Origin: an uncultured Microbacterium sp.
GTDB taxonomy: Bacteria; Actinomycetota; Actinomycetes; Actinomycetales; Microbacteriaceae
Direction of reading: 5' to 3'
Assembly (NCBI RefSeq): GCF_947632095.1
Contig: NZ_CANROA010000003.1
Span: forward strand, 11,340-75,339
DNA length: 64,000 nucleotides
In this document: piece after piece, positions 1 to 21,142 of the stretch
Numbering within the stretch: position 1 is the stretch's first letter
How the letters are laid out: each line of letters starts with the position of its first letter
The notes under the pieces: model-generated
Told to the model about the DNA's origin: nothing
Seen by the model: only the letters and a program-made list of their open reading frames with translations
Database searches by the model: none
Made by a program: the position numbers and the translations under genes

Positions 1-342
1 GGTGGTTTCGGGGTCGGGAACGGTCTCGAGCTCGTCGATCGCGGTCTCGCGCCGTGCGCGCCCCCACGCGGCGGCGGTGTTGCGGATGCTGGTGAACAGG
101 TAGGCGCGGAAGGAGCCGTTCGGGCCGCCACCCTTGAGCACCGCCTGGTAGATGCGGGTGTATGCCTCTTGGACGAGGTCATCGGCATCGATGCTCGACG
201 TCACCGACCGTGCGACGACGATTCCCGAGGGGTAGTGGCGTCGCCACAGCTCGCCGAAAGCCGCCGTGTCTCCCGAGCGGGAGCGCAGGATCAGGTCGGC
301 GTCAGATGTCGGTTCTGTACTGGTGAGTTCGTCGTTTTGCAC
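1..342 (-). CDS. ECF-type sigma-70 RNA polymerase sigma factor (N-terminal part; runs off window edge)
   Basis: Not in ORF track; manual translation from GTG at 342: MQNDELTSTEPTSDADLILRSRSGDTAAFGELWRRHYPSGIVVARSVTSSIDADDLVQEAYTRIYQAVLKGGGPNGSFRAYLFTSIRNTAAAWGR, a typical sigma region 2 (DADDLVQEA...FRAYL..SIRN). Confidence 0.85.
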   Translation of the reverse strand, partial: MQNDELTSTEPTSDADLILRSRSGDTAAFGELWRRHYPSGIVVARSVTSSIDADDLVQEAYTRIYQAVLKGGGPNGSFRAYLFTSIRNTAAAWGRARRETAIDELETVPDPETT

Positions 343-549
343 TGGTGCCCGTCGATCGTGGGAGGCCGGGTGTGCTCCCACAGGAAGAGTTGCGCGCGGT
401 GTCGGTCGTCATGCGCCCGAGCCATTCTCCCCCGAATCTTCCGTTGAGACCACCCCGACCGAGAGCCTGTGGACAACGGGGAAGAATTTTTCGGGTTTCG
501 CGTAATGAATCGCGGTCATGGCCGTCTCATCAGTCAGAGACAACCACAA

Positions 550-709
550 GAGCTCCACCGGGGGGAGGAGCTCGGGGCCGGCGAGAGCAGTGAATCATCG
601 GCCGGGTGGGTCAGAAGCCTCGGGGGAGGAGTTGCTGATCCACCCGTTCTCATGCCGGAGGAGAGAAAGGGGCCGTTGCTGTGGGGAGCAACGGCCACCC
701 TTCCTCCTC
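550..709 (-). ncRNA. Candidate structured RNA with three C-rich-loop hairpins (6C-like); first hairpin may be the nagA terminator
   Basis: Inverted repeats at 658-709, 603-646 and 550-573; minus-strand loops CCCCAC, CCCC (within CUCCUCCCCCGAG) and UCCCCCCGGU. Confidence 0.4.
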
Positions 710-720
710 GCGCCGGTGGC

Positions 721-1869
721 TCAGTCCAGGCCGGAACCGGTCTGCACATGCGCCACGGTGAAATCGGCGCTGAGGATCACGGCATCCCCGAGGTATCCCT
801 CGGCGAGGCGTCCGAGCCGGTCTCCCACGCCGATCGCACGCGCCGGCGTCTCGGTGAGGGCGCGCACCGCCTCGATGAGCGGGACGCCCGCGGCGACCGC
901 GCGCTGAAGGGCGACGTCCTGCGTGAGAGTGGAACCGGCGATCGATCCCGTTTCATCCGTGCGGGCGATGCCATCGGTGACCGTGACCTTGACGGCGCCG
1001 AGGTCGTACTTGCCGTCTGCGCTGCCGGCGGCTGCCATCGCATCCGTCACCAGTGCGACGCGACCGGGAGCCGAATCGAAGAGCAGCTTGATGACGTACG
1101 GGTCCAGGTGCACGTTGTCGGCGATGCCCTCGAGGACCACCCGGTGATCGGCCGCAGCCGTGAGCACAGGGCCGGGGGCGCGGTGGTGGATGCCGGGCAT
1201 GGCGTTGAACGCGTGCGTGAGGATGGTCGCACCGGCTTCGAACGCCTCCCGTGCCTGCGCGGCATCCGCGCTGGTGTGACCGACCGCGGCGGCGGCGCCG
1301 GCGGCGACGATCCGACGGATCGCCTCGAGCCCTCCGGGGAGCTCGGGGGCGAGGGTCACCTGACGGACCGTCCCGCGGCCGGCGTCGAGCAGCCGCTGCA
1401 CGTCTTCGGCGACGGGGTGGCGCAGCAGGGTCGGTTCGTGGGCGCCCTTGCGCTCCGGTTCGAGGAACGGCCCTTCCAGATGAGAGCCGAGGATGTCGGC
1501 ATCCGTCTGCATGAGGTCGGCGATCTCCGCGACGCGGCGCGCCAGGTCATCGACCGGCGCGGTCACCAGCGACAGCACGGAACGCGTCGTGCCGTGGGAA
1601 CGGTGCATCGCACGGGCGGTGCGGATGGCATCCGTGCCGTCGTCGAATGCGGCACCGGCGCCGCCGTGCGCGTGGATGTCCACGAAGCCCGGAGTCAGAA
1701 TCGCGCCGTCGCCAGCCAGCGCGGTCGCGTCGATCACCGTGTCGGCGTCGCTCCAGCTCGCACCGGTGCCGGTCGCGACGACGACGCCGTCGGCGAAGCG
1801 CACCCACGCATCGGGCGTCTCGACGCCATCCGTGATGAGTCGGGCGGAGTGGATCAGGGTCGTCGTCAT
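721..1869 (-). CDS. nagA: N-acetylglucosamine-6-phosphate deacetylase
   Basis: PGFVDIHAHGG, HLEGPF, THAFNAM, IADNVHLD and LVTDAMAAAG amidohydrolase motifs; ATG at 1869 overlaps the upstream stop (TGATG). Confidence 0.93.
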   Translation of the reverse strand: MTTTLIHSARLITDGVETPDAWVRFADGVVVATGTGASWSDADTVIDATALAGDGAILTPGFVDIHAHGGAGAAFDDGTDAIRTARAMHRSHGTTRSVLSLVTAPVDDLARRVAEIADLMQTDADILGSHLEGPFLEPERKGAHEPTLLRHPVAEDVQRLLDAGRGTVRQVTLAPELPGGLEAIRRIVAAGAAAAVGHTSADAAQAREAFEAGATILTHAFNAMPGIHHRAPGPVLTAAADHRVVLEGIADNVHLDPYVIKLLFDSAPGRVALVTDAMAAAGSADGKYDLGAVKVTVTDGIARTDETGSIAGSTLTQDVALQRAVAAGVPLIEAVRALTETPARAIGVGDRLGRLAEGYLGDAVILSADFTVAHVQTGSGLD

Positions 1870-3365
1870 CAGTTGCTCCAGTCGATCTCGGCGGGACGGT
1901 GCCCACCCCATCCTGCGGCATCCCAGACGGATGCCACGGCGCGCACGCGCGCGCGGAAGGACTCCCAGTCGCGGGATTCCTTCTGCGACCAGCCGATCTC
2001 CGCGATCGCCGCGGCCCGCGGGAACAGCAGCTGGTCGATGTCATCCGGCGTCTCGAGCGTCTCCGCCCACAGCGGGCCCTCCACGCCGAGCACGGCTGCT
2101 TCGGGCAGGCCGTCGACGATCGTGGTCGGCTCCCATCCGTATGCGGTCTCGAGGTCGATGAGGGCGGCCCAGTCGAGCCCGAGCGGGAAGTCCGCGTCGT
2201 ACTTCTGGTCGAGGTATGCGGCATCCGACGGCGACATGACCACCGATCCGCCGCGCTCGGCGAACGCGCGCGTGATCCCGGCGACGCGCTCATCAGGGGA
2301 CAGGCTGCTCCAGTACTGACCGATCGTGCCAGGCGCCACCGGGGCGGAACCCGCCTCGTGCCAGCCGACCGGCGTCTTGCCGAGGTCGGTGACGAGCGTC
2401 GTCACCCGGGCGATGAACGCATCGAAGTCGGCCTGCTCGGTGCCGTGCGCCTCGTCGCCGCCGATGTGCAGCAGGGGACCGGGCGTGAGGGCGGCGACCT
2501 CGCCGAGCACATCACGCAGGAACTCCCAGGTGGCCTCGTCGTGGATCTTGACCGACGAGTGACCCACGCCCCAGCCCGTGTACGGTTCGCCGGCGACCGG
2601 CAGTGCCTGATCGAGCTCGGCGGCCTGCGCGAGCAGCGCCTCGTTCATGACCGGCGCTTCCACGATCTCGGGGTAGGCGAGGCCGATCGCGTGCGTGTGG
2701 CCGGGCAGGTCGATCTCGGGGACGATCACGATGTGACGGGATGCTGCGTAGTCGACGATCTCTCGGAAGTCGTCCTGCGTGTAGAAGCCGCCGTCGCGGC
2801 CGGAGGCCGCGGTCGCGGAGGCGCGCTCGGTCAGCAGGGGGCGGCTGAGGATCTCGAGGCGCCAGCCCTGGTCGTCGGTGAGGTGCAGGTGCACGTGGTT
2901 GATCTTCATCGAGGCGGCGCGGTCGATGAACGCCTTGATCGTGTCGACGCCGAAGAACGTGCGCGCGACATCGAGCATGAGGCCGCGGTACGCGAAGCGC
3001 GGGGCATCCGCGATCGAGACGTGCGGCAGCGACCAGTCCTCGCCATCGCCGCTCAGCAGCTGACGCAGCGTCTGGACGCCATGGAAGACGCCCGCCGCGG
3101 ATCCCGAGATGCGCACCCGATCATCGACGACGAGGTCATAGGCCTCACCCTCGGCGCCGGTGATCACCAGTTCGATATCGCCCGCGCTCGCCGCATCGAT
3201 GACGACCTCGAGGATCAGTCCGGTGCGCGCGGCGATCGCCTCGCGGAGGACGGATGCCGTGGCATCCGATGCGTCGCCCGCAAGGATTCGGGATGCCGAA
3301 GTCAGGGCGAGGGTGCCCGGGAACTCCGTGACGGACGCGGGAAGCGGAACAACAGGAAAGACCAT
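1869..3365 (-). CDS. Beta-N-acetylhexosaminidase (GH20)
   Basis: PRFAYRGLMLDVAR, HLHLTDDQGWRLEI, PEIDLPGH, HIGGDE catalytic motif, GVEGPLWAE. Confidence 0.93.
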   Translation of the reverse strand: MVFPVVPLPASVTEFPGTLALTSASRILAGDASDATASVLREAIAARTGLILEVVIDAASAGDIELVITGAEGEAYDLVVDDRVRISGSAAGVFHGVQTLRQLLSGDGEDWSLPHVSIADAPRFAYRGLMLDVARTFFGVDTIKAFIDRAASMKINHVHLHLTDDQGWRLEILSRPLLTERASATAASGRDGGFYTQDDFREIVDYAASRHIVIVPEIDLPGHTHAIGLAYPEIVEAPVMNEALLAQAAELDQALPVAGEPYTGWGVGHSSVKIHDEATWEFLRDVLGEVAALTPGPLLHIGGDEAHGTEQADFDAFIARVTTLVTDLGKTPVGWHEAGSAPVAPGTIGQYWSSLSPDERVAGITRAFAERGGSVVMSPSDAAYLDQKYDADFPLGLDWAALIDLETAYGWEPTTIVDGLPEAAVLGVEGPLWAETLETPDDIDQLLFPRAAAIAEIGWSQKESRDWESFRARVRAVASVWDAAGWGGHRPAEIDWSN

Positions 3366-3442
3366 GAACAAAATGTATCGCGCGCAACGCCGCCGCGGCA
3401 GGGCGACGAGATTCGGCGCCGCACGAATTCCGCTATGCTCGA

Positions 3443-3516
3443 CCTGTCGCGACTGGCGTCTGGGTGGGTCACCACCGGGGAGCGACCGTTACGGAATTCG
3501 ACCGCGCGCCTGGGCC
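3443..3516 (+). promoter_or_regulatory. ZMP/ZTP (pfl) riboswitch
   Basis: GTCGCGACTGGCG...GTGGG..ACCACCGGGGAGCGAC...CGCGCGCCTGGGC fits the pfl motif (GACUGGCG pseudoknot partner CGCCUGGGC) and lies directly upstream of glyA-folD. Confidence 0.9.
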
Positions 3517-3562
3517 GATGACATCCCCCGATGCATTTCATTCCGCAACGAAAGAGGACGAC

Positions 3563-4837
3563 ATGACCGATCCGTACTTCACCGCCCCGCTCTCCGAGGT
3601 CGACCCCGAGATCGCCGAGGTCCTCGACCGCGAGCTGAACCGTCAGCGCACGTTCCTCGAGATGATCGCCTCCGAGAACTTCGTTCCCGTCTCCGTGCTG
3701 CAGTCGCAGGGCTCCGTGCTCACGAACAAGTACGCCGAGGGCTACCCGGGCCGCCGCTACTACGGCGGCTGCGAAGAGGTCGACGTCGCCGAGTCCCTCG
3801 CCATCGAGCGGGTCAAGAGCCTGTTCGGCGCCGGCTTCGCCAACGTGCAGCCCCACTCCGGAGCATCCGCCAACGCCGCCGTCCTGCACGCCATCGCGCG
3901 CCCCGGCGACACGCTCCTCGGCCTCTCGCTCGACCACGGCGGCCACCTCACCCACGGAATGAAGATCAACTTCTCCGGCCGTCTCTACGACATCGTCGCC
4001 TATGGCGTCGACCCCGAGACCTCGCTCGTCGACATGGACGAGGTCCGTCGCCTCGCCCTCGAGCACAAGCCGAAGGTCATCATCGCCGGCTGGTCGGCGT
4101 ACCCGCGTCAGCTCGACTTCGCGAAGTTCCGCGAGATCGCCGACGAGGTCGGCGCCCTCCTCTGGGTCGACATGGCGCACTTCGCGGGCCTCGTCGCCGC
4201 GGGCCTGCACCCGAACCCCGTGCCGCATGCGCACGTCGTCTCCTCGACCGTGCACAAGACCATCGGCGGCCCCCGCTCGGGCTTCATCCTCTCCAACGAC
4301 GCCGACATCGCGAAGAAGATCAACTCGGCCGTCTTCCCGGGCCAGCAGGGCGGGCCCCTCATGCACGTGATCGCCGCGAAGGCGACCGCGTTCAAGATCG
4401 CCGCAACGCCCGAGTTCGCGGAGCGGCAGGAGCGCGTTCTGCGCGGCGCCTCGATCCTCGCCGACCGCCTCACCCAGCAGGACGTCGCGGACGCCGGCAT
4501 CACGGTGCGCTCGGGCGGCACCGACGTCCACCTCGTACTCGTCGACCTCCGTAACGCCGAGATCGACGGCAAGCAGGCAGAAGACCTGCTGCACGACATC
4601 CACATCACCGTCAACCGCAACGCGGTCCCCAACGACCCGCGTCCGCCGATGGTGACCTCGGGCCTGCGCATCGGCACCCCGGCGCTCGCCACCCGCGGAT
4701 TCGGCGATGCCGAGTTCACCGAGGTCGCCGATGTCATCGCCCTGGCGCTGCAGCCCGGTGCCGACGTCGAGGCGCTGCGCGCCCGTGTCGACGCGCTCGC
4801 CGCAGCGTTCCCGCTGTACCCCGAGCTGCAGCAGTAA
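3563..4837 (+). CDS. glyA: Serine hydroxymethyltransferase
   Basis: [50 protein letters not shown]-lysine motif; RBS AAAGAGG before ATG 3563. Confidence 0.98.
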
Positions 4838-4866
4838 GCACCGGCATCCGCCATTCGGCACTTCGA

Positions 4867-4925
4867 GACGGGAGTTCCCGCTCGAGACAGGACGGCCTCG
4901 TCCCGCCTCGTCCGGAACTCCCGTC
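4867..4925. repeat. Long imperfect intergenic hairpin between glyA and folD
   Basis: GACGGGAGTTCC (4867-4878) / GGAACTCCCGTC (4914-4925) with inner CGAG/CTCG and GGACG/CGTCC stems. Confidence 0.7.
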
Positions 4926-4948
4926 CCACCGACGAACAGGAACATGAC

Positions 4949-5830
4949 ATGACCGCGAAGGTCCTCGACGGCAAGGCCGCTTCGGCGGCGATCAAGGACG
5001 AGCTCGCCGAGCGCGTCGCAGCGCTCAAGGCGAAGGGCATCACGCCCGGCATCGCCACGGTGCTCGTCGGCGCCGACCCGGCATCCCAGCTGTACGTCGG
5101 CATGAAGCACCGGCAGTCCGAGGCGATCGGCATGAACTCGATCCAGCGCGAGCTGCCCGCCGATGCCACGCAGGAGGAGGTCGAGGCGCTGATCGACGAG
5201 CTCAACGCGGATGACACCTGCCACGGCTACATCGTGCAGCTGCCGCTGCCGAAGCACATCGACACCGATCGCATCCTCGAGCGCATCGATCCGGCGAAGG
5301 ATGCCGATGGCCTGCACCCGACGAACCTCGGCCGTCTCGTGCTGAACGTGAACAGCCCGATCGAGACTCCGCTGCCGTGCACGCCGCGCGGCGTCATCGA
5401 ACTGCTCGTGCGCAACGGCTACGACCTGAACGGCAAGCACGTCGTCGTCGTCGGCCGCGGCGTGACGATCGGACGCCCGATGGGTCTGCTGCTGACCCGT
5501 CGCGATGTGAACGCGACCGTCACCCAGGTGCACACCGGCACTCCCGAGATGGGCCCCTACCTGCGCCAGGCCGACGTCATCGTCGCCGGCGCCGGTGTGA
5601 AGCATCTCATCCGCGCGGAAGACGTGAAGCCCGGCGCAGCCGTGCTCGACGTCGGCGTCACGCGCGAGACCGACCCCGAGACCGGTAAGAGCAAGGTCTA
5701 CGGAGACGTGCACCCCGAGGTTGCCGAGGTCGCGGGCTTCGTGTCGCCGAACCCGGGCGGCGTCGGCCCCATGACCGTCGCGCTTCTCATGACGAACGTC
5801 GTCGAGACCGCGGAGCGTCTCGTCCGCTGA
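4949..5830 (+). CDS. folD: Bifunctional methylenetetrahydrofolate dehydrogenase/cyclohydrolase
   Basis: [47 protein letters not shown]. Confidence 0.97.
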
Positions 5831-5840
5831 CGACGCTGTC

Positions 5841-5880
5841 ACGACGAAGCCCCCGCGCATCTGCACGGGGGCTTCGTCGT
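5841..5880. terminator. Bidirectional terminator-like hairpin
   Basis: 15-bp perfect inverted repeat ACGACGAAGCCCCCG / CGGGGGCTTCGTCGT between convergent genes. Confidence 0.8.
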
Positions 5881-5893
5881 TCATCCGGCGGTA

Positions 5894-6622
5894 TCAGCCG
5901 CCCAGCTGACTCTCGACGCCGATGATGCGCGCGTGCTCGTCGAAGCGGAACGTGGCCGTGCCCGAGGCATCCGACACCATCGCCGCGCTGAAGGCCTCAT
6001 CGACCCACTGCAGATTCCACCCGGCCAGGCGGGCCGCATCCCACAGCGCCGAGCGGGCATCCGTCAGCGTGAGCGCCGGCAGCAGACGCGGGGTCGCGAT
6101 GACGGCATCCGCCACCGTCGTCGGGGGGATCGGAGCGTCAAGAAGGAAGACAGCACGGGTGCCGCCGCCGACCGGAGCCGAGAAATGGGGGGAGCGGCCG
6201 GTGATCTCCGTCGCGATCGTGCCGATCTGCTCGGCCGTGCGCAGGATCCAGGCGTCGAGCTTCTCGCCGTCGGCGGGAGCGTCCTCGGGGAACGCGAGCT
6301 CGGGCTGCGCCAGATCGGTCAGCTCGTACTGCGTTCCGTAATCGCGCAGCTGCCCGGCGACACCCGACGGGTCGCCCTGCGGGTGCGCCCACGCCCACAG
6401 CATCGAACGCGGTCCCGGTGCGATCGTCGCGATGAGGGTCGGCTTCGTCACCACCTGGTGCGAGGAATCGTCGGATGCCGTGAACGTCAGTGTGCCCGCG
6501 CCCAGATCGGCATCCCAGCGGTGATCGCCCAGCGCGTTGACGGCCGTGGCCAGCGCGTCCTGACGATAAGCGGCGAAGAGGGAGGCGCGCTCGGCGAGCG
6601 GCTGAAGAGCGGCGAAGGTCAT
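5894..6622 (-). CDS. Hypothetical protein, DUF6882-like
   Basis: Start trimmed to MTFAALQPL (ATG 6622); HRWDADLGAGTLTF...SMLWAWAHP resembles DUF6882 proteins; coding-like codon usage. Confidence 0.6.
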   Translation of the reverse strand: MTFAALQPLAERASLFAAYRQDALATAVNALGDHRWDADLGAGTLTFTASDDSSHQVVTKPTLIATIAPGPRSMLWAWAHPQGDPSGVAGQLRDYGTQYELTDLAQPELAFPEDAPADGEKLDAWILRTAEQIGTIATEITGRSPHFSAPVGGGTRAVFLLDAPIPPTTVADAVIATPRLLPALTLTDARSALWDAARLAGWNLQWVDEAFSAAMVSDASGTATFRFDEHARIIGVESQLGG

Positions 6623-6707
6623 GCCTCCAGTCTGGCCGGAGAACCTATGATCGCGCCACTTGCGGCTAGGGTGAGGCCGAAACGACCACCGGACAAAGGA
6701 GTTCACC

Positions 6708-8072
6708 GTGTCGCAGACACAGGAATCACGCCGTCCCCGCGGCTTGATGCGCCCCATCAACCGCTTCCTCGAGCGGTGGATCCCCTCGGCGCTGACCTTC
6801 GCGATCGTCTTGACGCTGATCGTCGCAGTGCTCGCGATGACTCTCACGCGCACGAGTCCGGTCGATGTCGTCCTGGGATGGGGCGATGGTCTTGCGGGCC
6901 TGCTCGCCTTCATGACCCAGATGTGCCTGATTCTGCTGCTGGGGTACATGCTCGCGAACACGCGGCCCGTGCAGAAACTGCTCCGGCGCCTGGCCCGCGT
7001 CCCGCGCACCGCGGGCTTCGCCTACGTCTTCGTCTTCGTGATCGCGGCGGTCGCGAGCCTCATCACATGGGGACTCGGTCTGATCGTGGGGACCCTCCTC
7101 GCGCGCGAGATCGCGGTCGAGGCGCGCAAGAGGGGCCTGAAAGTGCATTTCCCCCTGCTCGTCGCCTCGGGGTACTCCGGTTTCGTCGTCTGGCACATGG
7201 GGTATTCGGGATCGGGTCCGCTGACAGCCGCGACGCCGGATTCCTTCCTCGCCCCGAGCCTCGGCGGTGAAGTCCTCCCCATCTCGGAGACGACGTTCTC
7301 GACGTGGAACATGCTCGCTGCGCTCGCGGTCATCGTGGTCGTCGCGGTGCTGATGTTCCTCGTGCGCCCCAAGCAGAACGACCCGGTCTACGAACTGCCC
7401 GATCGCGTCGGATCGGAGGAGGTCGACGAGTACGACGACGAGGTCGTCACCCCGGCCGATCGCATCGACGCCTCCCGCATCCTGACACTCATCGTGGGCA
7501 TCGGGCTGGCGATCTACCTGGTCGTCCACTTCGTACGCGGCGGCACGCTGACGCTCGACATCGTGAACTGGTCGTTCCTCGCCCTCATCCTCCTGCTGGT
7601 GCGCAACCCGTTCGAGCTGATCCACCTCACCAAGAAAGCCGCATCGAACGTCGGAGAGATCCTGCTGCAGTTCCCGTTGTACGCCGGAATCCTCGGCATC
7701 ATGAGCAGCTCCGGCCTGATCCAGCTGTTCTCGGACGCATTCGTCTCGATCGCGACGCCGATGACGTTCGGGGTGCTCGCTCTGCTCTCGGCGGGCATCG
7801 TCAACTTCTTCGTCCCGTCGGGCGGCGGGCAGTTCGCTGTTCAGGGGCCGATCATGCTCGACGCGGCGAACCAGCTCGGCGTCGACCCGTCGATCGCGGT
7901 TATGGCCGTCGCGTACGGCGATCAGTGGACGAACATGATCCAGCCGTTCTGGGCGCTGCCAGTGCTCGCGATCGCCGGGCTGAAGATGCGTGACATCCTG
8001 GGATACACCTTCATCACGATGCTCGGATCGGGCGTCGTGATGGCCGCGGCACTGTTCATCGTGAGCCTGTGA
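6708..8072 (+). CDS. Short-chain fatty acid transporter (AtoE family)
   Basis: Multi-TM protein with FMTQMCLILLLGYMLA, HFPLLVASGYSGFVVWHMGYSGSGPL, NFFVPSGGGQFAVQGP, AYGDQWTNMIQPFWALP. Confidence 0.88.
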   Translation: MSQTQESRRPRGLMRPINRFLERWIPSALTFAIVLTLIVAVLAMTLTRTSPVDVVLGWGDGLAGLLAFMTQMCLILLLGYMLANTRPVQKLLRRLARVPRTAGFAYVFVFVIAAVASLITWGLGLIVGTLLAREIAVEARKRGLKVHFPLLVASGYSGFVVWHMGYSGSGPLTAATPDSFLAPSLGGEVLPISETTFSTWNMLAALAVIVVVAVLMFLVRPKQNDPVYELPDRVGSEEVDEYDDEVVTPADRIDASRILTLIVGIGLAIYLVVHFVRGGTLTLDIVNWSFLALILLLVRNPFELIHLTKKAASNVGEILLQFPLYAGILGIMSSSGLIQLFSDAFVSIATPMTFGVLALLSAGIVNFFVPSGGGQFAVQGPIMLDAANQLGVDPSIAVMAVAYGDQWTNMIQPFWALPVLAIAGLKMRDILGYTFITMLGSGVVMAAALFIVSL

Positions 8073-8108
8073 CTGCAGCGGTGCCGGCCCGGTGACGGGC
8101 CGACACCG

Positions 8109-8918
8109 TCAGTACCCCGCGCGGCCCGGATCCTCGGCCTCGGGAATCCACTCCGCGGCCAGACGCTCCGTGGAGCGGGCGAGGAGCGATACGTCGGCGG
8201 CGACCAGCACGAAGTGCGCACCGGCCTCGAGGTAGCGTCGTGCGGTCGCGGGGGAGAACGCGTTCACACCCACCGGCTTCCCGGCGGCGCGCACCGCCGC
8301 GATCGTCCGCTCGACCGCGGCGATGACATCCGAATGCTCCTGCTGGCCCAGCAGGCCCAGGGATGCCGCGAGATCGCTCGGCCCGATGAAAACAGCGTCC
8401 ACGCCGTCGACCTCGGCGATCCGCTGGGCGTTGCGCACCCCGGCATCCGATTCGATCTGCACGGTGAGGGACGTGATCTCATGTGCACGCCGCAGATAGC
8501 CGTCGATGCGGTTGAACTGCGCCGCGCGCGCCAGTGCGCTGCCGACGCCGCGCACTCCGAGCGGGGGATATCGGGTGGCGGCGACCGCCCGGGCCGCCTC
8601 CTCGGCCGTGTTCACCATGGGCACGAGGATGTTCTGCGCCCCCACGTCGAGGAACTGCTTGATCAGCACCGTGTCGTTGGCCGGCACCCGCAGCACGGGC
8701 GTGATCGGGTACGGGGCGGCGGCCTGCAGCAGGGCGAGCGCCGACTCCGGAGTCACCGGGCTGTGCTCCCCATCGATGAGTGCCCAATCCAGTCCGGAAC
8801 CCGCCACGATCTCCGCGACGAGCGGACTGCCGGAGCAGATCCATGCGCCGACGAGAGGCCGACCCGCTTCGCGCAGACGCTCCCGGAACGACGGTGCCGG
8901 CTCTAGACGAAACGACAC
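8109..8918 (-). CDS. hpaI: HpcH/HpaI family aldolase (2,4-dihydroxyhept-2-ene-1,7-dioate aldolase)
   Basis: LIDGEHSP, FLDVGAQNILVPMV, RYPPLGVRGVGS, VQIES, VFIGPSDL; last gene of hpa operon; GTG 8918 overlaps hpaH. Confidence 0.9.
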   Translation of the reverse strand: MSFRLEPAPSFRERLREAGRPLVGAWICSGSPLVAEIVAGSGLDWALIDGEHSPVTPESALALLQAAAPYPITPVLRVPANDTVLIKQFLDVGAQNILVPMVNTAEEAARAVAATRYPPLGVRGVGSALARAAQFNRIDGYLRRAHEITSLTVQIESDAGVRNAQRIAEVDGVDAVFIGPSDLAASLGLLGQQEHSDVIAAVERTIAAVRAAGKPVGVNAFSPATARRYLEAGAHFVLVAADVSLLARSTERLAAEWIPEAEDPGRAGY

Positions 8919-9691
8919 GTGATCACCCCCATCTCGCGGTAGTCGCACCGCACCTCGTCACCCTTGTGCACCCACATCGGTCGCGTGAAGGAACCCGCGA
9001 GGATGATCTCCCCGGCCTCCAGCCGCGCCCCGTGCTGATGGAATTTGTTCGCGAGCCATGCCACACCGGTCGCCGGATGCCCGAGCACCCCGGCCGCGAC
9101 ACCGGTCTCCTTGATCTCGCCGTTGCGTGAGAGCACCCCGGGCACCCAGCGCAGATCGATCTCATCCGGGCGCATCCGCACATCGCCGAGAACCATCGCA
9201 CCGTACGCTGCGTTGTCGCTGATGGTGTCGACGATCGTGCGTCCCTCCAACTCGATGTGCGAGTTCAGGACTTCCAGGGCCGGAACGGCGTAGTCGATCG
9301 CCGCCAGAGCATCATCGAGCGTGCAATCCGGGCCCTCCAGCGGCGCCCTCAGGACGAAGGCGAGCTCCACCTCGATGCGCACATTGGAGAAGTCGTCGAA
9401 CGGGATCTCGGCGCCCGATGCATAGACGGTGTCATCGAACATGACCCCGTAGTCCGGCTCGCTGATTCCGGTCGCCTGCTGCATCGCCTTCGACGTCAGC
9501 CCGATCTTGCGGCCCACCAGGGTGCGCCCCGCAGCGAGGTTCTTATCGCGCCATATGGCCTGGATCGCATACGAGTCCTCGATCGTGGCATCCGGGAAAC
9601 GAGCCGTGATCCGCGGGATCACCCCGTGTGCTCGGTCGGCCTCGGCGAGCTCGGAAGCGATCCGCTCGCGCTGCTCGGCGGTGAGCGTCAC
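8903..9691 (-). CDS. hpaH: 2-oxo-hept-3-ene-1,7-dioate hydratase
   Basis: [49 protein letters not shown]. Confidence 0.93.
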
Positions 9692-10854
9692 AGCTGATGC
9701 CCGAGTTTGTACTCGCCCTGCTTGTACTCCGGTATCGACTCCTCGCCCTCGTCGCGGCGCGTGTAGGAGAAGCCGTCCGCGCCGATCGTGACGGCCATCT
9801 CGCTGTCATCGGTGCGGGCGATGACGGGCTGCGGGTTTCCGTCGAGATCGAGCACGAGCGAGGCATCCGTGTACCAGGAGGGGACCACGGGGTTGCCCCA
9901 CCAGTCGCGGCGCTGATTGTCGTGCACATCCCACGTGACGACGGGGTTATCGGGGTCGCCGGTGTAGTAGTCCTGGGTGTACACCTCGACGCGGTGCCCG
10001 TCGGGGTCGCGCAGATACAGGTAGAAGGCGTTCGAGACGCCGTGGCGGCCGGGGCCGCGCTCGATGGCATCCGACCGGCGCAGTGCGCCGAGCTTGTCGC
10101 AGATCGCGAGGATGTTGTGCTTCTCGTGCGTCGCGAAGCACACATGATGCATGCGCGGGCCGTCGCCGCCCGTCATGGCTGTGTCGTGCACGGTGGGCTT
10201 GCGGCGCATCCACGCGGCGTACACCGTGCCCTCCTCATCCTGGATGTCCTCCGTGACGCGGAAGCCGAGATCCTGCATGTGCTTCACGGCACGCGGAACA
10301 TCGGGAGTCACCTGGTTGAAGTGATCGAGGCGCACGAGCTCGCCCGGAATGTGCAGGTCGTACCGCCAGGACATCCGCTCGACGTGCTCGGCCTGGTAGA
10401 AGAACTCGTAGGGGAATCCGAGGGGATCGACGACGCGCACCGAATCCCCGATGCCGGTGACGAAGCCGTCGCTCCTGCGGCGCACATCGCAGCCGAGCTC
10501 GGTGTAGAACGCGACGGCGCGGTCGAGGTCCTCGGGGGTGCGCACACGATAGGAGAAGGCGGCCACCGCGGCGACGGGGCCCTTGCGCAGCACGAGGTTG
10601 TGGTGGATGAACTCCTCGGTAGAGCGCAGGTAGATCGACTCGTCGTCCTCGGCCGTGACGTACAGGCCGAGCACGTCGACGTAGAACTGACGGGATGCCG
10701 CGAGGTCGGTGACCACGAGCTCCATATACGCGCAGCGCAGGATGTCGGGCGGCGAGGCCTGCGGAGTGGCGATCGGATTGTCGGTCTGGATCGGCGCCTC
10801 CTGGCTCACGTAGTAACCGGAGGAGGTCAGGGTCATGTCTTCACGGTTCGTCAT
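9688..10854 (-). CDS. hpaD: Homoprotocatechuate (3,4-dihydroxyphenylacetate) 2,3-dioxygenase, VOC fold (Brevibacterium/Arthrobacter type)
   Basis: PDILRCAYMELVVTDL; metal ligand motifs LDHFNQ, MHHVCF, RVEVY; GPGRHGVSNAFYLYLRDPDGH. Confidence 0.95.
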   Translation of the reverse strand: MTNREDMTLTSSGYYVSQEAPIQTDNPIATPQASPPDILRCAYMELVVTDLAASRQFYVDVLGLYVTAEDDESIYLRSTEEFIHHNLVLRKGPVAAVAAFSYRVRTPEDLDRAVAFYTELGCDVRRRSDGFVTGIGDSVRVVDPLGFPYEFFYQAEHVERMSWRYDLHIPGELVRLDHFNQVTPDVPRAVKHMQDLGFRVTEDIQDEEGTVYAAWMRRKPTVHDTAMTGGDGPRMHHVCFATHEKHNILAICDKLGALRRSDAIERGPGRHGVSNAFYLYLRDPDGHRVEVYTQDYYTGDPDNPVVTWDVHDNQRRDWWGNPVVPSWYTDASLVLDLDGNPQPVIARTDDSEMAVTIGADGFSYTRRDEGEESIPEYKQGEYKLGHQL

Positions 10855-10864
10855 GTCAGCGTCC

Positions 10865-12361
10865 TCACTGCTTTCCGAAAACGGGGTTGTGGACCTCGCC
10901 GAGATTGATGTGCACGGCCTGCTGGTCGGTGTAGAAATCGATCGAACGGTAGCCGCCCTCGTGGCCGAGGCCGGAGGCCTTGACCCCTCCGAACGGGGTG
11001 CGCAGATCCCGCACATTGTTGGAGTTCAGCCAGACCATTCCGGCCTCGACCGCGGCGGCGAAGTTGTGCGCGCGCTTGAGATCGTTCGTCCAGATGTACG
11101 CAGCAAGCCCATAGCGGGTGTTGTTCGCCAGAGCCAGGGCCTCGGCATCATCATCGAACGGCGTGATCGCGACGACCGGCCCGAAGATCTCCTCCTGGAA
11201 GATCCGCGCCTCGGGGGACACATCGGCGAACACGGTCGGGGCGACGAAGTTCCCGGTCTCGAAACCCTCCGGGCGGCCGCCGCCGGCGACGAGGCGCCCC
11301 TCGCTCCTGCCGATCTCGACGTAGCTCATGACCTTCTCGTAGTGCTCCGGGTGCACGAGAGCGCCGACCTCGGTGGCGGGGTCGTTCGGATAGCCGACCT
11401 TCACGCGCTTCGCCTGCGCCGCGTAGCGCTCGACGAACTCCTCGTAGATCGAGCGCTCGACAAGAATGCGGGATCCCGCGGTGCAGCGCTCGCCGTTGAG
11501 GGAGAACACTCCGAAGACGGTCGCGTTGATCGCGGCATCCAGGTCGGCGTCGGCGAAGACGACGGCGGGGGACTTCCCGCCCAGCTCCATCGACAGTCCC
11601 TTGAGGTGCGGGGCGGCATTGCCGAAGATGATCTGCCCGGTGCGGCTCTCGCCCGTGAACGAGATGAGCGGGACATCCGGATGCTTCACCAGCGCATCGC
11701 CGGCATCTTCGCCGAGTCCGTTGACGAGGTTGAAGACGCCCTTCGGCAGCCCCGCCTCTTCGAAGATGCCCGCCCACAGCGAAGCCGACAGGGGAGTGAA
11801 CTCCGCCGGCTTCAGGACGACGGTGTTTCCGGTCGCGAGCGCGGGGCCGAGCTTCCACGACTCGAGCATGAACGGGGTGTTCCACGGGGTGATGAGGCCC
11901 GCGACGCCGATCGGCTTGCGATTGACGTAGTTGATCTGGCGGCCGGGAACCTTGTAGGTGTCATCGGCCTGCGCGACGATCAGATCGGCGAAGAAGCGGA
12001 AGTTCTCCGCCGCACGTCGCGCCTGGCCGAGGGCCTGCGTGATCGGCAGGCCCGAGTCGAAGGACTCCAGCTCCGCCAGACGTGCATCGCGGGACTCGAC
12101 GATGTCGGCGATGCGGTGCAGCACGCGCGATCGCTCACGCGGCAGCATCTTCGGCCACGGCCCCTCGTCGAAGGCGCGCTTGGCCGCGGCGACGGCGCGG
12201 TCGATGTCGGCCTTCTTGCCGGCGGCGGCCGTCGTGTAGGTGTCGTTCGTGACGGGGTCGAGCACATCGAAGACATCGCCATCGGTCGAATCGACGAATT
12301 CGCCATCGATGTAGTGCCGGATGCGGTCCGGCAGGTCGTGCGGGATGCGGTTATCGGTCAT
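10865..12361 (-). CDS. hpaE: 5-carboxymethyl-2-hydroxymuconate semialdehyde dehydrogenase
   Basis: ALDH motifs PWNTPFML, SFTGES, MELGGKSP, FSLNGERCTAGSR, EEIFGP; position in hpa operon. Confidence 0.92.
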   Translation of the reverse strand: MTDNRIPHDLPDRIRHYIDGEFVDSTDGDVFDVLDPVTNDTYTTAAAGKKADIDRAVAAAKRAFDEGPWPKMLPRERSRVLHRIADIVESRDARLAELESFDSGLPITQALGQARRAAENFRFFADLIVAQADDTYKVPGRQINYVNRKPIGVAGLITPWNTPFMLESWKLGPALATGNTVVLKPAEFTPLSASLWAGIFEEAGLPKGVFNLVNGLGEDAGDALVKHPDVPLISFTGESRTGQIIFGNAAPHLKGLSMELGGKSPAVVFADADLDAAINATVFGVFSLNGERCTAGSRILVERSIYEEFVERYAAQAKRVKVGYPNDPATEVGALVHPEHYEKVMSYVEIGRSEGRLVAGGGRPEGFETGNFVAPTVFADVSPEARIFQEEIFGPVVAITPFDDDAEALALANNTRYGLAAYIWTNDLKRAHNFAAAVEAGMVWLNSNNVRDLRTPFGGVKASGLGHEGGYRSIDFYTDQQAVHINLGEVHNPVFGKQ

Positions 12362-12374
12362 GATTCCTCCGGTA

Positions 12375-13055
12375 TCAGTGCGCGGGTGCGCTGACGGCGT
12401 CGTCGGCACGGGTGCGCTCATGGTCGAGATAGGCGTCGAGAGTGGATGCGTGGTGCTGGCGTGCGGCCTGTTCGATCCGTTCGATCGGGGCGCCGCTTTC
12501 GATGAGCGCGATGATCTGCTCGTGCTCGCGAACGGAATCGTGCGCGCGGCCGGGCACGAAGCTGAACGTCGAGTCGTGCAGGCGGTTCAATCGCTGCATC
12601 TCGAGCGTGACGAGCTCGTGCAGGCGCGGGTTCGGGCACGGCGCGATGAGGGTTTCGTGGAACTCCTGGTTGAGCTGAGTGAACGCCGAGGGGGTGAAGT
12701 GCGCGAGCGTCTCGATCATCCGGTCGTTGATGGCACGAGCGCGCGCGATGTCGTCGACCGTGAGATGGGGGGCGGCGAGCGCGGTCGCACTGCCCTCGAG
12801 GACCGCGAGCGTCTCCATGCTGTGCCGGTACTGCCGATCATCGACCATGGCGACGCGTGCGCCGATGTTGTGCTCGAACTGCACGAGCCCCTCGGCCTCG
12901 AGCTGGCGGATCGCCTCGCGCACCGGCACCGCGCTCATGTCGAGCTCGGCGGCGATGCTGCCGAGTACGAGGCGGTACCCGGGGGTGAAGGTCTGCGCCG
13001 CGATGCGCTCCTTGATCCAGTGGTATGCCTGCTGGGATTTGCTCATCGTCTTCAT
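12375..13055 (-). CDS. GntR/FCD family transcriptional regulator (probable hpa regulator)
   Basis: SKSQQAYHWIKERI...PGYRL...MSAVPVREAIRQLEAEGLV HTH; C-terminal FCD domain (NQEFH, EHEQII). Confidence 0.9.
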   Translation of the reverse strand: MKTMSKSQQAYHWIKERIAAQTFTPGYRLVLGSIAAELDMSAVPVREAIRQLEAEGLVQFEHNIGARVAMVDDRQYRHSMETLAVLEGSATALAAPHLTVDDIARARAINDRMIETLAHFTPSAFTQLNQEFHETLIAPCPNPRLHELVTLEMQRLNRLHDSTFSFVPGRAHDSVREHEQIIALIESGAPIERIEQAARQHHASTLDAYLDHERTRADDAVSAPAH

Positions 13056-14491
13056 TCGCGGCCTTCGTACTTCGCGCGCCATTCGGCGTTCATCGGGAAA
13101 AGTCCATCGACGGGATGCCCCGCCTGCACCTGCGTGGCGATCCACGCATCTTCATCCTCCTGCGCGATCGCGGCGTCGGCGACCTCCTCGGCGAGGTGCG
13201 GGGGGATGACGATCACGCCATCGCCGTCTCCGACGATGATGTCGCCGGGCTGGACGGCCGCGCCGCCGCAGGCGATCGTGACATCGACGTCCCAGGGGAC
13301 GTGGCGACGGCCGAGCACCGAGGGGTGGGCGCCCCGGGAGAACACGGGTAGCCCGATGCGGGCCACTTCGTCGTGGTCGCGGACACCGCCGTCGGTGACG
13401 ACGCCGTCAGCGCCCCGCGCGACGGCGCGGAGCGCCAGGATGTCGCCGAGCGTGCCGGTCGTGGAGTCGCCGCGGGCTTCGATCACGATGATCTCCCCCT
13501 CGCCGACGGCGTCGAACAGCCGCTTCTGCGCGTTGTAGCCGCCGCCGTGGCTGGCGAAGAGGTCCTCTCGTGCGGGGATGAAGCGCAGAGTTCGGGCTGC
13601 GCCGACGATCTTCGCATCGGGAAGGTTCGCCGCGACGCCGTCGATGAAGCAGTGGTGGTGGCCGCGCTTGCGCAACTGGGCCGAGAGTCCGGCGGTCGGA
13701 GCCTGCTCGAGCTTCGCGCGCAGGTCGGCGGATAGCGCGGGAGCCGTTTCCGGCGTCGTCGGGGGCGTGCCCCAGGCCTCGCTGCGCTGTGTGTCATCGA
13801 CCGTCGGGAGTGAGCCGAGGCTCGGGTCGAACGGGGTGTCGCCCTGCGTCACGGTCGTGACGAGCCGGCCGGACGTGGGGGCGCCGGGGGCGGAGGGGGC
13901 GTCGACCTCGACCTCGACGACATCGCCCGGAACGATGACCGATGAGCCCGCGGGCGTCCCCGTGAGGATGACATCCCCGGTTTCGAGGGTGAAGTGCTGG
14001 GAGAGATCGGCGACGAGCTGGGCGAGGGGGAAGACGAGGCCGGCCGAGTCATCGTCCTGGCGCAGTTCGCCGTTGACCCAGGTGCGCACCCGGATGCTGT
14101 CGGGGTCGACGTCGTGCGCATCGATGAGGGACGGCCCGAGGGGCGTGTAGCCATCGCCGCCCTTGGAGCGAACGTTCGAGCCCTTGTCATTGGCGCGCAG
14201 ATCGTAGAGGCCGAGGTCGTTGGCCGCGGTGATGGATGCCACGTGGGACCAGGCATCCTCGAGGGGGACATGGCGGGCCGGGGCGCCGATGATGAGGGCG
14301 ATCTCTCCCTCGAACGCCAGCAGCTCCGTGCCCGCGGGGCGCTCGACCGTGCCGCCGGATGCCGCGACGGAGCTCGGCGCCTTGAAGAAGTAGGACGGGT
14401 GCGCAGGGCGGCGCCCGCGCTGCTCGGCGCGCGAGGCGTAGCTGAGGTGGATCGCGATGATCTTGCCGGGGCGGGGGATCAGGTCGGTCAC
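13052..14491 (-). CDS. hpaG: Fumarylacetoacetate-hydrolase family (HpaG-like) protein fused to an RraA/HMG-aldolase-like domain
   Basis: N-terminal FAH motifs (FFKAPSS, FEGEIA, ANDL, KGGDGYTPLGP, GDVILTGTP); C-terminal RraA-like motifs (GAARTLRF, GDILALRA, DGGVRD, QPGDIIVGDGDGVIVIP). Confidence 0.8.
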   Translation of the reverse strand: MTDLIPRPGKIIAIHLSYASRAEQRGRRPAHPSYFFKAPSSVAASGGTVERPAGTELLAFEGEIALIIGAPARHVPLEDAWSHVASITAANDLGLYDLRANDKGSNVRSKGGDGYTPLGPSLIDAHDVDPDSIRVRTWVNGELRQDDDSAGLVFPLAQLVADLSQHFTLETGDVILTGTPAGSSVIVPGDVVEVEVDAPSAPGAPTSGRLVTTVTQGDTPFDPSLGSLPTVDDTQRSEAWGTPPTTPETAPALSADLRAKLEQAPTAGLSAQLRKRGHHHCFIDGVAANLPDAKIVGAARTLRFIPAREDLFASHGGGYNAQKRLFDAVGEGEIIVIEARGDSTTGTLGDILALRAVARGADGVVTDGGVRDHDEVARIGLPVFSRGAHPSVLGRRHVPWDVDVTIACGGAAVQPGDIIVGDGDGVIVIPPHLAEEVADAAIAQEDEDAWIATQVQAGHPVDGLFPMNAEWRAKYEGRE

Positions 14492-14613
14492 GTCGGGCGC
14501 CTCCTTGCGTCGTCGTCATCACCCTTGTGCGATGTATTCGAAATCGTATATCATCCTGGCGTCAGGGGGCAAGCACACCGACAACCGACAACGACGTCAC
14601 ACAAGGAGCTTCA

Positions 14614-15987
14614 ATGACTGACAAGCCCGGGTTTACTCCGACCGGCACGATCGCCACCGCGGCAGACCGCAGACGCGTGGTCTTCGCGACAGTGGTGGGC
14701 ACCACCGTCGAGTGGTACGACTTCTTCATCTACGCCACGGCCGTCGGCCTGGTCTTCGGGCAGCTCTTCTTCTCCGCGCTCGGTACGAACACCGTCATCC
14801 TCGGATTCGCCACCGTCGGCATCAGCTTCCTGTTCCGCCCGCTCGGAGCATTCCTCGCCGGGCACTTCGGCGACAAGCTGGGACGCAAGCGCGTGCTCAT
14901 GTGGACGCTGATCCTCATGGGAGCCGCCACGGCACTGATCGGTCTTCTTCCGACTGCCGAGGTCATCGGCATCGGCGCCCCGATCCTGCTCGTCTTCCTC
15001 CGTATCCTCCAGGGAATCTCCGCCGGCGGCGAATGGGGCGGCGCGGTACTCATGGCCGTCGAGCACGCGCCCAAGAAGCGGCGCGGCATCTTCGGCGCCT
15101 CGCCCCAGATCGGCGTTCCCCTCGGGCTCCTCCTCGCCTCGGGCGTCATGGCGATCATGACCGCGATCGCACCGGGAGACGCCTTCCTCGCATGGGGATG
15201 GCGCATCCCGTTCCTGCTCAGCGTCGTTCTGATCCTCATCGGCCACTATGTGCGCCGCAACGTCGAGGAGAGCCCGGTGTTCGCCGAGCTCGCCGAGCGC
15301 AAGGAGAAGGCGAACATGCCGATCGTGCAGCTGTTCCGCAAGCACGCACTCCTCGTGCTGATCGCCGCCCTCGTCTTCGCCGGCAACAACGCGGTCGGTT
15401 ACATGACCACCGGCGGCTACATCCAGGGATACGCCACCGACCCCGAGGGGCCGATCGGTCTCGACCGCGGTCCGGTGCTGTGGGCCGTCACCGGCTCCGC
15501 CGTGACCTGGCTGCTCACGACGCTCCTGGCCGGATGGGTGTGCGACCGCATCGGCCGGCGGACGACCTACATCATCGGCTGGGTCCTCCAGCTCGGCGGT
15601 GTCGCACTGCTGTTCCCGCTGGTCAACACCGGCAGCGTCGGCGCGCTGTTCGCCGCCCTCGCGATCCTCACGATCGGCCTCGGATTCACCTACGGACCGC
15701 AGGCCGCGCTGTACGCCGAGCTGTTCCCGGCATCCATCCGGTTCTCTGGCGTCTCGATCTCCTATGCGATCGGCGCGATCCTCGGTGGCGCGTTCGCCCC
15801 GACGATCGCCGCGGCCATCGTGAATGCGACCGGGTCGACGGATGCCGTCACCTGGTATCTCGCCGGCATGACCCTCATCGGTCTCATCGCCACCCTCCTG
15901 CTGCGCGACCGCAGCGGGATCCCGCTGGGCCCCGACCATGAGCAGGAGCAGGCCATCAGCCCGATCCGCGGTCTCGCCCGCGCCTGA
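14614..15987 (+). CDS. MFS transporter, metabolite:H+ symporter family (ShiA/ProP-like)
   Basis: GTTVEWYDFFIY, RPLGAFLAGHFGDKLGRK, LRILQGISAGGEWGGAVL; RBS AAGGAG. Confidence 0.9.
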   Translation: MTDKPGFTPTGTIATAADRRRVVFATVVGTTVEWYDFFIYATAVGLVFGQLFFSALGTNTVILGFATVGISFLFRPLGAFLAGHFGDKLGRKRVLMWTLILMGAATALIGLLPTAEVIGIGAPILLVFLRILQGISAGGEWGGAVLMAVEHAPKKRRGIFGASPQIGVPLGLLLASGVMAIMTAIAPGDAFLAWGWRIPFLLSVVLILIGHYVRRNVEESPVFAELAERKEKANMPIVQLFRKHALLVLIAALVFAGNNAVGYMTTGGYIQGYATDPEGPIGLDRGPVLWAVTGSAVTWLLTTLLAGWVCDRIGRRTTYIIGWVLQLGGVALLFPLVNTGSVGALFAALAILTIGLGFTYGPQAALYAELFPASIRFSGVSISYAIGAILGGAFAPTIAAAIVNATGSTDAVTWYLAGMTLIGLIATLLLRDRSGIPLGPDHEQEQAISPIRGLARA

Positions 15988-15997
15988 CGATGTGAGC

Positions 15998-16031
15998 CGC
16001 GGGGGCGGATGCCGCGGCATCCGCCCCCGCG
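15998..16031. repeat. Perfect 34-bp palindrome
   Basis: CGCGGGGGCGGATGCCG|CGGCATCCGCCCCCGCG between co-oriented MFS and monooxygenase genes. Confidence 0.85.
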
Positions 16032-16049
16032 AACGACGAAGGAGTACCG

Positions 16050-17921: not shown

Positions 17922-17927
17922 ACGCGG

Positions 17928-19661: not shown

Positions 19662-19870
19662 GGCTGAGCCTTTCGAGACGGTATCGGTCGATTCCGTATA
19701 TGTCTCGCGCGGTGCGTCATCGCGCCGGGGCTTCGTGTCCCTTTTTCGAACACCGGCGGGTAGCCGGACCTGACGATGCTATCGCGTTGACGGCCGCGGT
19801 CTCAGCATCCTCTATGCTGAGCGGGCTGTTGCTGTTTCGTCGAGCGATCACTCCACAGAGGGAACCACCC

Positions 19871-21136
19871 ATGCACTCTGCCCGGCTGTCCGCTGCTGTC
19901 CTTCTGTCTGTCGGTGCGCTGATCCTCAGCGGCTGCACCGTCGAGTCGGAACAGGCTGTTCCGACGCCGAGCGCCGATGCCGAGGTTCCGGCGGCGTATG
20001 AGGGTCCGCTGTCGTTCAGCTCCGCTGAGCTGGCGTGGTTGCTGCCGGACGCGGCGGATCTTTCGACGCTGCTTCCGGGAGCCGAGTCCTTCGTGGAGCC
20101 GAGTGATTTCCTCGAGGTGATCTCCGATGGCGGCGGAGCACCGTTCAGCCCTGCCATCTGCGAGGCGTTCGTCTATGAACCGACGATGGACGCGGTCGCT
20201 GCGCGCGCCGTGAGCTGGACGGGGCCGACCGACGAACCGTCCGGTCGCCTCGTTGCCATGCAGTATCCGAGTGAGAACCGTGCCCAGGAGATGTTCTCCG
20301 CTTTCCGTACCGCAGCGGAGAGCTGCGGAGAATTCGATGTCGACGGGCCGGCGGTCTTCGATCAGGTCGTCGATATCGCGGACGGCCAGGTGGATGCTGT
20401 CGCCGGTGTCCTGTGCGCACCGGCGGAGGACTGCGGCTGGTGGTCGTCGTTCGTCGCCTACGGAACGGTCGGCAACGCTTTCATCGTGCTTCAGCATCCG
20501 GCGACGACCGGCGATGGCCTCGACACTCGGGCGGTCACTGAATTGCTCGTCGAGACGATGCTCTCCGCGGAGGAGAGGCTGATCGGAGAGCTCACGGAGA
20601 ATCCGCCCGCGGAGGAGGAGGAGGACACTCCCGCCAGCGACGCCTCCGGTCCGTGGGGCGAGTGGACGATCACGCCTGAGGGCATCGGGCCGATCCGTCT
20701 CGGCGACACCGTCGAGGATGCGCTCGCCGCGGTTCCCGATGTCGTGGTCTCCACAGACATCCCCGGGGAATGGGCGTTGACCGCCGAGGATGGTGCCCGC
20801 GTCGTCCTGCGGTCGTCCGACGGCATCGCCGTGACCTCGGTGATGATCGGCGCCGAGAGCCTGTGGGGCGATGATGAGGTCGTGGATGGAGCGTTGCTCC
20901 CGTCGGTCGAAGGCATCCGCGTGGGGGATGCCTTGTCGACGGCGGTATCGGCGTTTCCGCAGGGCACCTTCGTGCATCTGATCGCGCCGGGCCAGAACCG
21001 TTATGTCGCGGCGGACCGTTCGGGCAGAACCGTCACCTTCTCCCTTGATCCGGCAACGGGAACGGAACCGGATTCGCGGATCGTGGGCATCATCCTCGGC
21101 GGCTCGGACGCGCTGGAGATGCCGGTCTTCGGGTGA
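19871..21136 (+). CDS. Putative lipoprotein of unknown function
   Basis: MHSARLSAAVLLSVGALILSGC signal peptide with lipobox; acidic, Cys-containing extracellular region. Confidence 0.75.
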   Translation: MHSARLSAAVLLSVGALILSGCTVESEQAVPTPSADAEVPAAYEGPLSFSSAELAWLLPDAADLSTLLPGAESFVEPSDFLEVISDGGGAPFSPAICEAFVYEPTMDAVAARAVSWTGPTDEPSGRLVAMQYPSENRAQEMFSAFRTAAESCGEFDVDGPAVFDQVVDIADGQVDAVAGVLCAPAEDCGWWSSFVAYGTVGNAFIVLQHPATTGDGLDTRAVTELLVETMLSAEERLIGELTENPPAEEEEDTPASDASGPWGEWTITPEGIGPIRLGDTVEDALAAVPDVVVSTDIPGEWALTAEDGARVVLRSSDGIAVTSVMIGAESLWGDDEVVDGALLPSVEGIRVGDALSTAVSAFPQGTFVHLIAPGQNRYVAADRSGRTVTFSLDPATGTEPDSRIVGIILGGSDALEMPVFG

Positions 21137-21142
21137 GGACGC

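Follow-up and report, generated by a model that had tools for sequence, protein, structure and literature searches.

Why does one short word recur so often in a stretch of actinobacterial DNA, within genes and between them alike? The stretch considered here, called the window, is the whole 64,000-nucleotide piece (1..64000) of a contig from an uncultured Microbacterium sp., and the word is the heptamer GGATGCC, which reads GGCATCC on the opposite strand. An initial annotation had listed 19 copies between 781 and 6479, and every one of them (19/19) is exact on the strand given for it. These copies lie on both strands, within genes (an amidohydrolase, a GH20 glycosidase, a folD-like gene and others) and also between genes. 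The accompanying zero-order expectation of ~1.5 copies for this 5.7-kb interval is about right, and the impression that the word keeps recurring past 6.5 kb is borne out by 112 exact heptamers in the whole window, divided about equally between the strands, where dinucleotide-preserving shuffles give 18.9 +/- 5.0 and never more than 34. The heptamer proves to be part of a somewhat longer sequence: GGATGCY, or YGGATGCYG in its fuller form, is a lineage-specific asymmetric genomic tag of 7-9 bp that occurs about once per kb on both strands.

The excess extends to the genome as a whole (an assembly of 2.50 Mb in 107 contigs, with 67.6% GC and 96% completeness), which holds 3161 heptamers against a zero-order expectation of 579, a raw excess of 5.5x. 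Under a maximum-order Markov model no hexamer of the genome exceeds its prediction more strongly than GGATGC (6293 vs 4275, z 31), and the excess of the heptamer sits mainly in this hexamer. The simplest account of such counts would be that there is no signal, and that the word is a by-product of codon usage, dipeptides, dinucleotide bias or dispersed repeats. Part of the raw excess is indeed compositional, the maximum-order model, supplied with the hexamer counts, already accounts for 2734 of the 3161 heptamers, and the frame GGC-ATC-C is favored by codon usage (505 expected). However, the excess survives every shuffle that was applied to the coding DNA, a set of 1836 open reading frames (ORFs) called by third-position GC. 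A synonymous codon shuffle within genes leaves 995 +/- 22 heptamers where 2591 are found, and all six frame and orientation classes are enriched, with xxG-GCA-TCC (640 vs 56) and xxG-GAT-GCC (968 vs 322) at the top. A stricter shuffle, in which protein sequence, codon counts and every dinucleotide are held constant, gives 3101 copies of GGATGC where 5041 occur, 1212 of GGATGCC where 2591 occur and 473 of CGGATGCC where 1390 occur. These three words rank first among the 6-, 7- and 8-mers, respectively, with z values of 35-42. Usage of Asp-Ala and Ala-Ser, which the initial annotation had named as a possible source of the enrichment, does not explain it, since the enrichment persists under a shuffle that preserves codons and dipeptides.

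The enrichment is larger still in noncoding DNA. In 767 short intergenic spacers (88.5 kb), judged against Markov models of orders 1-3, GGATGC once more heads the hexamers (261 vs 86), while CGGATGCC (85 vs 10) and CGGATGCT (44 vs 6) stand out within an overall enrichment of 5-8x; GGATGCG and GGATGCA occur at expectation. None of the null models removed the signal, whether the dinucleotide shuffle, the zero- to maximum-order Markov models, the synonymous, codon and strict shuffles or the spacer models. Because the excess survives the coding shuffles and is also present in spacers, the signal acts on DNA and not on protein or codon choice. The proposal that the word is a genome-wide DNA-level signal, of the same class as uptake sequences, Chi or the cyanobacterial highly iterated palindrome (HIP1), is upheld in this respect. 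Dispersed repeats do not account for it either: palindromic repeats of 82-85 bp in this window and genome do not have the word among their constituents and are a separate element. A compositional artefact is excluded by the synonymous and strict shuffles, by the spacers and by codon choice in relatives, and congeners and other families of similar GC content and codon usage lack the excess, which leaves the absence of any signal a most improbable outcome.

The form of the word is strict at its center and graded at its edges. GGATGCT is enriched as much as GGATGCC, and GGATGCR is not enriched, so that a pyrimidine is required directly after the core; this is followed by a preference for G and then C, and the core is preceded by C or, less often, T. 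The core GGATGC itself behaves in an all-or-none manner, and a substitution of any one letter abolishes the excess, with counts at expectation or a little under it. No one-mutation neighbor of the core is singled out by depletion (ratios of 0.67-1.4 of expectation). The strength of the bias is best seen in codon choice. GGATGCC fills 23.6% of the places where the protein would permit it, compared with 8.6% expected from codon usage, and GAT is used in 76% of G-GAy-GCY contexts but in 32% of cases overall. The rarest alanine codon, GCA, is chosen in 70% of R-GCn-TCC contexts and in 9% overall, which confirms the early impression that the word forces this codon and agrees with the count of the xxG-GCA-TCC class. 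The codon override is equal in all quartiles of third-position GC, taken as a measure of codon bias, with odds of ~7-24x. The word also slightly shifts dipeptide use: the dipeptides that can host it (Asp-Ala, Gly-Ile, Met-Pro and Gly-Cys) are 15-35% above expectation where the tag is abundant but not in tag-poor genomes, although the samples from relatives are small and this comparison is suggestive only. A strong sequence-specific fixation bias therefore operates on this DNA, overriding codon preference in all frames and in spacers.

The distribution of the word among relatives was determined by counting CGGATGCY in whole genomes. It occurs at 1003/Mb in this genome and at 600-1350/Mb in most of 120 congeners, ~17 of which have just 100-300/Mb. 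Across 101 genera of the family the density is graded from background up to 1200/Mb, and in the other 23 families of the order it is ~60-200/Mb. The word is confined to one family, probably the Microbacteriaceae. One tag-rich genome from another genus of the family (G163, a 200-kb sample) prefers C alone at position +7, a small dialect. By comparison, a 200-kb sample of one tag-poor congener (G031) has no enrichment of the word, and in the diagnostic contexts its codons are chosen at baseline frequency, as is also the case in another family. No replacement dialect of comparable strength appears in samples of 100-200 kb from tag-poor relatives.

A similar word is found in another family of the order, f23. 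Its sequence, CGGCATAC, is the complement of GTATGCCG, which has seven of eight letters identical to GGATGCCG and differs in having T for G as its third letter. This word is found on both strands at 330-600/Mb in the three f23 genomes and at <=30/Mb in every other family counted, the window's family included, and each of the two families is at background for the word of the other. The words of these two families of one order are thus distinguished by a single letter, G[G/T]ATGCCG.

The word is also scarce in DNA that does not belong to the resident chromosome. Three Microbacterium phages (Min1, BAjuniper and Franklin22) have no excess of it, and the excess is reduced in low-GC windows of the genome, which are probably foreign. 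The bias is restricted to the resident chromosomal DNA of one actinobacterial family. An effect of mutational context would hardly be expected to discriminate so strictly over 7-8 bp or to change by one letter between families, and on this basis a protein that reads the word is the probable cause.

Several other words were noted in the same genomes. In BAjuniper and Franklin22 the palindrome GCCGGC is strongly over-represented and by far the top hexamer (342 vs 147 and 290 vs 117, respectively, under an order-2 model). In the tag-poor congener G031 (first 200 kb, contig 1) the palindrome ATCGCGAT leads the octamers (68 vs 14) and AGGCGCTG comes second (62 vs 15). Another genus of the family (G156, 100 kb) has GGATGC depleted (16 vs 31) and words centered on GATCC (CGATCCRC) enriched, a pattern that may be due to a restriction system or to some other signal. 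Finally, a genome of family f10 (G073) has CCTCGGCG at 60 vs 8.7 and ACCTCGGC at 41 vs 6 in a small sample of 40 kb judged against a null without codons, and CCTCGGCG is a possible further family-specific word.

If a protein is responsible, one way for it to act would be through repair, of the HIP1 or very-short-patch kind: a sequence-specific mismatch enzyme, with or without a methylase, would correct near-cognate sites toward the word, which would build up as a by-product. The abundant 8-mer HIP1 of cyanobacteria, which has been linked to methylases, is a precedent. Such a process would act in all DNA contexts, on both strands and with Poisson spacing, and gain or loss of the enzyme could vary its strength in a manner that fits the patchy distribution. 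In E. coli, words that contain CTAG are depleted. Here no one-mutation precursor is specifically depleted, as the neighbor ratios given above indicate, and the excess is missing from phages that replicate in these hosts. The gene content argues in the same direction. The 96%-complete assembly has no match to a C5 methylase (PF00145) or Vsr (PF03852), nor to the N6_Mtase, Eco57I and D12 models (PF02384, PF07669 and PF02086), and no Type I or IIG-type methylase was found in it. The only DNA methylase found is a beta-class N6/N4 enzyme similar to YhdJ and CcrM, an orphan encoded next to a DctM transporter gene (G000:C20:35268-36239, locus L001). It is core in the genus, where it occurs in 113/121 genomes including all tag-poor species; it is also present in the tag-free families f7 and f9, with 65-90% identity across the genus and these two families, and was not found in f23. 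L001 is a candidate housekeeping methylase. The suggestion that the word is a methylase target, with its FokI-type GGATG and SfaNI-type GCATC sites, is accordingly not supported, since no matching methylase was found and the beta-class enzyme is equally present in untagged relatives; the FokI/SfaNI-type site is enriched here and not avoided. Nor does this methylase co-vary with the tag. We regard a repair-driven origin as improbable.

The orientation and spacing of the copies bear on a second class of explanation. Copies are evenly divided between the strands (2343/2297, or 50.5% plus), and relative to genes they are 1766 sense and 1953 antisense. Of neighboring copies, 47.6% share an orientation, and there are no runs of like orientation. 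In a complete congener, two 200-kb arms with opposite GC skew place 52.9% of copies on the presumed leading strand. No polarity was detected relative to GC skew, relative to neighboring copies in the genome or between the arms of the congener. Spacing is near Poisson, with a coefficient of variation (CV) of 1.07, and density increases with local GC. An FtsK-orienting sequence (KOPS) is made less likely by this result, because strong polarity toward dif is required of such a sequence and none is seen.

These observations also weaken the comparison with Chi that the initial annotation had offered. A Chi-like word would be read by an AdnAB-type helicase-nuclease at double-strand breaks, where it would attenuate degradation and promote RecA loading, and selection would keep it frequent. 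A length of 7-8 bp, a strict core, an excess of ~3-8x, the top rank among words, family variants and absence from phages are all features in which the word resembles known Chi sites. The genome moreover encodes an AdnAB-type gene pair, in that two adjacent ORFs of ~1100-1200 aa each bear a RecB-type nuclease domain at the C-terminus, as in AdnA and AdnB. Within 300 bp there is a small deficit of same-strand neighbors (0.97 of expectation, as opposed to 1.14 for opposite-strand neighbors), which could also be reconciled with it. However, known Chi sites are clearly skewed by orientation and this word is not, a RecC model has no match in the genome, and Chi selection leaves the preference for hairpin apices described below unexplained. 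We know of no Chi for AdnAB. A Chi-like function is unlikely in view of this absence of polarity, although somewhat less so than repair. The genome also encodes NucS.

The single clear local pattern in the arrangement of copies is a set of 39 convergent pairs, GGATGCY-NN-RGCATCC. Many of these palindromes cap long, G/C-rich, terminator-like hairpins that lie 3' of genes, and the apex of the hairpin then consists of a 6-bp stem and a 4-nt loop that is often UNCG-like. In agreement with this location, convergent spacers contain 3.7 sites/kb, tandem spacers 3.0 and divergent spacers 2.2, where ~1 is expected. The 18-bp palindrome is found in 11/18 congeners and in 0/12 genomes of other families. 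A similar outer stem (acgacgaaggg ... cccttcgt) recurs in many of the hairpins capped by the tag (C14:14130, C49:8896, C50:6546, C52:487, C42:11198 and C46:13852), which suggests that these terminators share a design or that the hairpins belong to a small dispersed family.

Examples of paired copies are present in the window, and the two that had been described as short palindromes, at 1917-1935 and 3252-3267, are real. The first is a divergent inverted pair (1917..1935, GGCATCC-N5-GGATGCC) at the junction of two minus-strand genes, which folds into a short hairpin with no significant gain over shuffles (z -1.2). The second is a convergent 16-bp palindrome (3252..3267, GGATGCC-GT-GGCATCC) inside the GH20 glycosidase gene. 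A further convergent pair, GGATGCC ... GGCATCC, lies at 14234..14258 with its copies 18 bp apart, and another divergent inverted pair, GGCATCC-N7-GGATGCC, occupies 20912..20932. The most stable example is an intergenic terminator-like hairpin at 15998..16031, in which the palindrome at 16007-16022 forms the apex GGAUGC-(CGCG)-GCAUCC on a G/C-rich stem extension; its minimum free energy is -37.6 kcal/mol (z -5.4) on either strand. The gene for serine hydroxymethyltransferase, glyA (3464..4834, plus strand), has zero heptamers and one GGATGC hexamer. Its lack of an exact copy was correctly recorded earlier, but at 1.3 copies/kb this has a chance of ~0.17 and is unremarkable.

The strict asymmetric core with its partly symmetric flanks (CGG-ATG-CCG) would also suit a DNA-binding protein of some other kind. 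Under this explanation the copies would be dense binding sites of a chromosome-associated reader, either a nucleoid organizer or the self-recognition arm of a defense system, each maintained by weak selection. The restriction of the word to resident DNA and its lineage-specific dialects are in keeping with such a reader. On the other hand, no candidate gene was identified and the spacing is without regularity, and in bacteria we are not aware of an abundant DNA-binding protein that has ~2500-6000 strict sites of 7-8 bp distributed evenly over coding DNA. We consider binding sites of this sort unlikely, to much the same degree as a Chi-like function.

The mechanism that we favor over the others, tentatively and by analogy, although it is still less likely than not, is a molecular drive of the type that maintains the DNA uptake sequence (DUS) of Neisseriaceae and the uptake signal sequence (USS) of Pasteurellaceae. 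Uptake sequences are the best anatomical match to the tag, which like them is symmetric between strands, independent of frame, paired at terminators, divided into family dialects and absent from phages. A machine that handles DNA would prefer fragments bearing the word when DNA from related cells is taken up or recombined. Alleles that create the motif would then become fixed more often than alleles that destroy it, and copies could accumulate wherever variation is tolerated, the two arms of terminator hairpins among these places. Natural transformation is known in the order from Micrococcus luteus (PMC4322843). ComEC is encoded in the genome, as are PilM and a PilB-type ATPase of the type IV pilus (G000:C67:2466-3473 and C71:1033-2187).

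Several observations nevertheless weigh against uptake-like drive. ComEC is present in 118/121 congeners, tag-poor ones included, and PilM occurs in 44/81 genomes of the order, among them many tag-free families, but in 0/3 f23 genomes and in only two of four sampled within the family, where it is patchy; both are therefore independent of tag density. Copies are spaced no more evenly than random (CV 1.07). The cores of DUS and USS are 9-12 bp, compared with 7-9 bp here, and their enrichment is hundreds-fold as opposed to 3-8x, so that this word would be a weak discriminator of self DNA. One-off variants of USS are enriched, and those of this word are not. To our knowledge, no Gram-positive bacterium has a known uptake sequence. 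A literature search found no uptake or transformation data for this organism or word.

A more general proposal is that the Actinobacteria of this order share a conserved DNA-reading machine that recognizes an 8-9 bp word in dialects specific to a family (G-G-ATGCCG for that of the window, G-T-ATGCCG for the second), and thereby marks resident DNA for uptake, recombination or protection. It would be the first self-DNA tag of the DUS, USS or Chi class to be described in the phylum. We judge this proposal, which leaves the activity of the machine unspecified, to have a little less than an even chance of being correct. A full-text literature search returned no description of the word, only primers and unrelated matches, and the CGGCATAC/GTATGCCG word is likewise without description in the literature searched. 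We know of no uptake sequence or Chi in high-GC Gram-positives.

If the word is read by a protein, it represents an undescribed genome-wide recognition system that is strong enough to override codon preference at thousands of sites. The reader could then be traced by comparative genomics through natural contrasts, namely the tag-poor congeners (~17/120) and a sister family with a one-letter dialect. Such a system would bear on self-DNA recognition in high-GC Gram-positives, and inclusion of the tag in vectors could make Microbacterium, Clavibacter and their relatives, which are difficult to manipulate genetically, more tractable. It would also permit better compositional models for gene calling and for the detection of horizontal transfer in these genomes.

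Two other biases were noted in the course of the counts. The coding DNA of the genome strongly avoids C or G runs of six letters or longer (CCCCCC, 188 vs 685 under the strict shuffle), whereas CTCCCCC/GGGGGAG (548 vs 282) and CGGGGGAG (340 vs 141) are enriched there; the enrichment of these two words fits the C-rich hairpin loops at 550-709 of the window. The top heptamers under the maximum-order Markov model are AGCGACT, AGCGCCT and AGCGCAT, which share the pattern AGCG-NN-T and constitute a second, weaker word bias.

Three known systems offer the closest comparisons. HIP1 of cyanobacteria, GCGATCGC, is an abundant palindromic 8-mer linked to cognate methylases. Like the tag, it is a hyper-abundant, lineage-specific word that occurs in coding DNA against codon preference. 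It differs in being a palindrome, whereas GGATGCY is asymmetric and has symmetry solely in the outer CGG...CCG, and in its link to methylases, where no matching methylase or Vsr-like gene was found here. Chi is GCTGGTGG in E. coli, AGCGG in Bacillus, GCGCGTG in Lactococcus and GAAGCGG in Staphylococcus. It too is a short, strict, asymmetric word that tops the words of its length with a few-fold excess, is specific to a lineage and is rare in phages, and a resection enzyme of the AdnAB type is encoded here. The tag departs from Chi in lacking leading-strand skew and RecC and in its preference for hairpin apices. The uptake sequences have the core GCCGTCTGAA in Neisseriaceae, with dialects and the minor pilin ComP as reader, and the core AAGTGCGGT in Pasteurellaceae. 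They differ from the tag in that the present phylum is Gram-positive and that ComEC and PilM do not track the word. In both cases, however, there is ~1 copy/kb, the strands are equal, replication polarity is absent, and copies occur in all frames and in spacers. The uptake sequences and the tag also have in common inverted pairs that form terminator hairpins, restriction to a family, one-letter dialects and scarcity in phage and likely foreign DNA.

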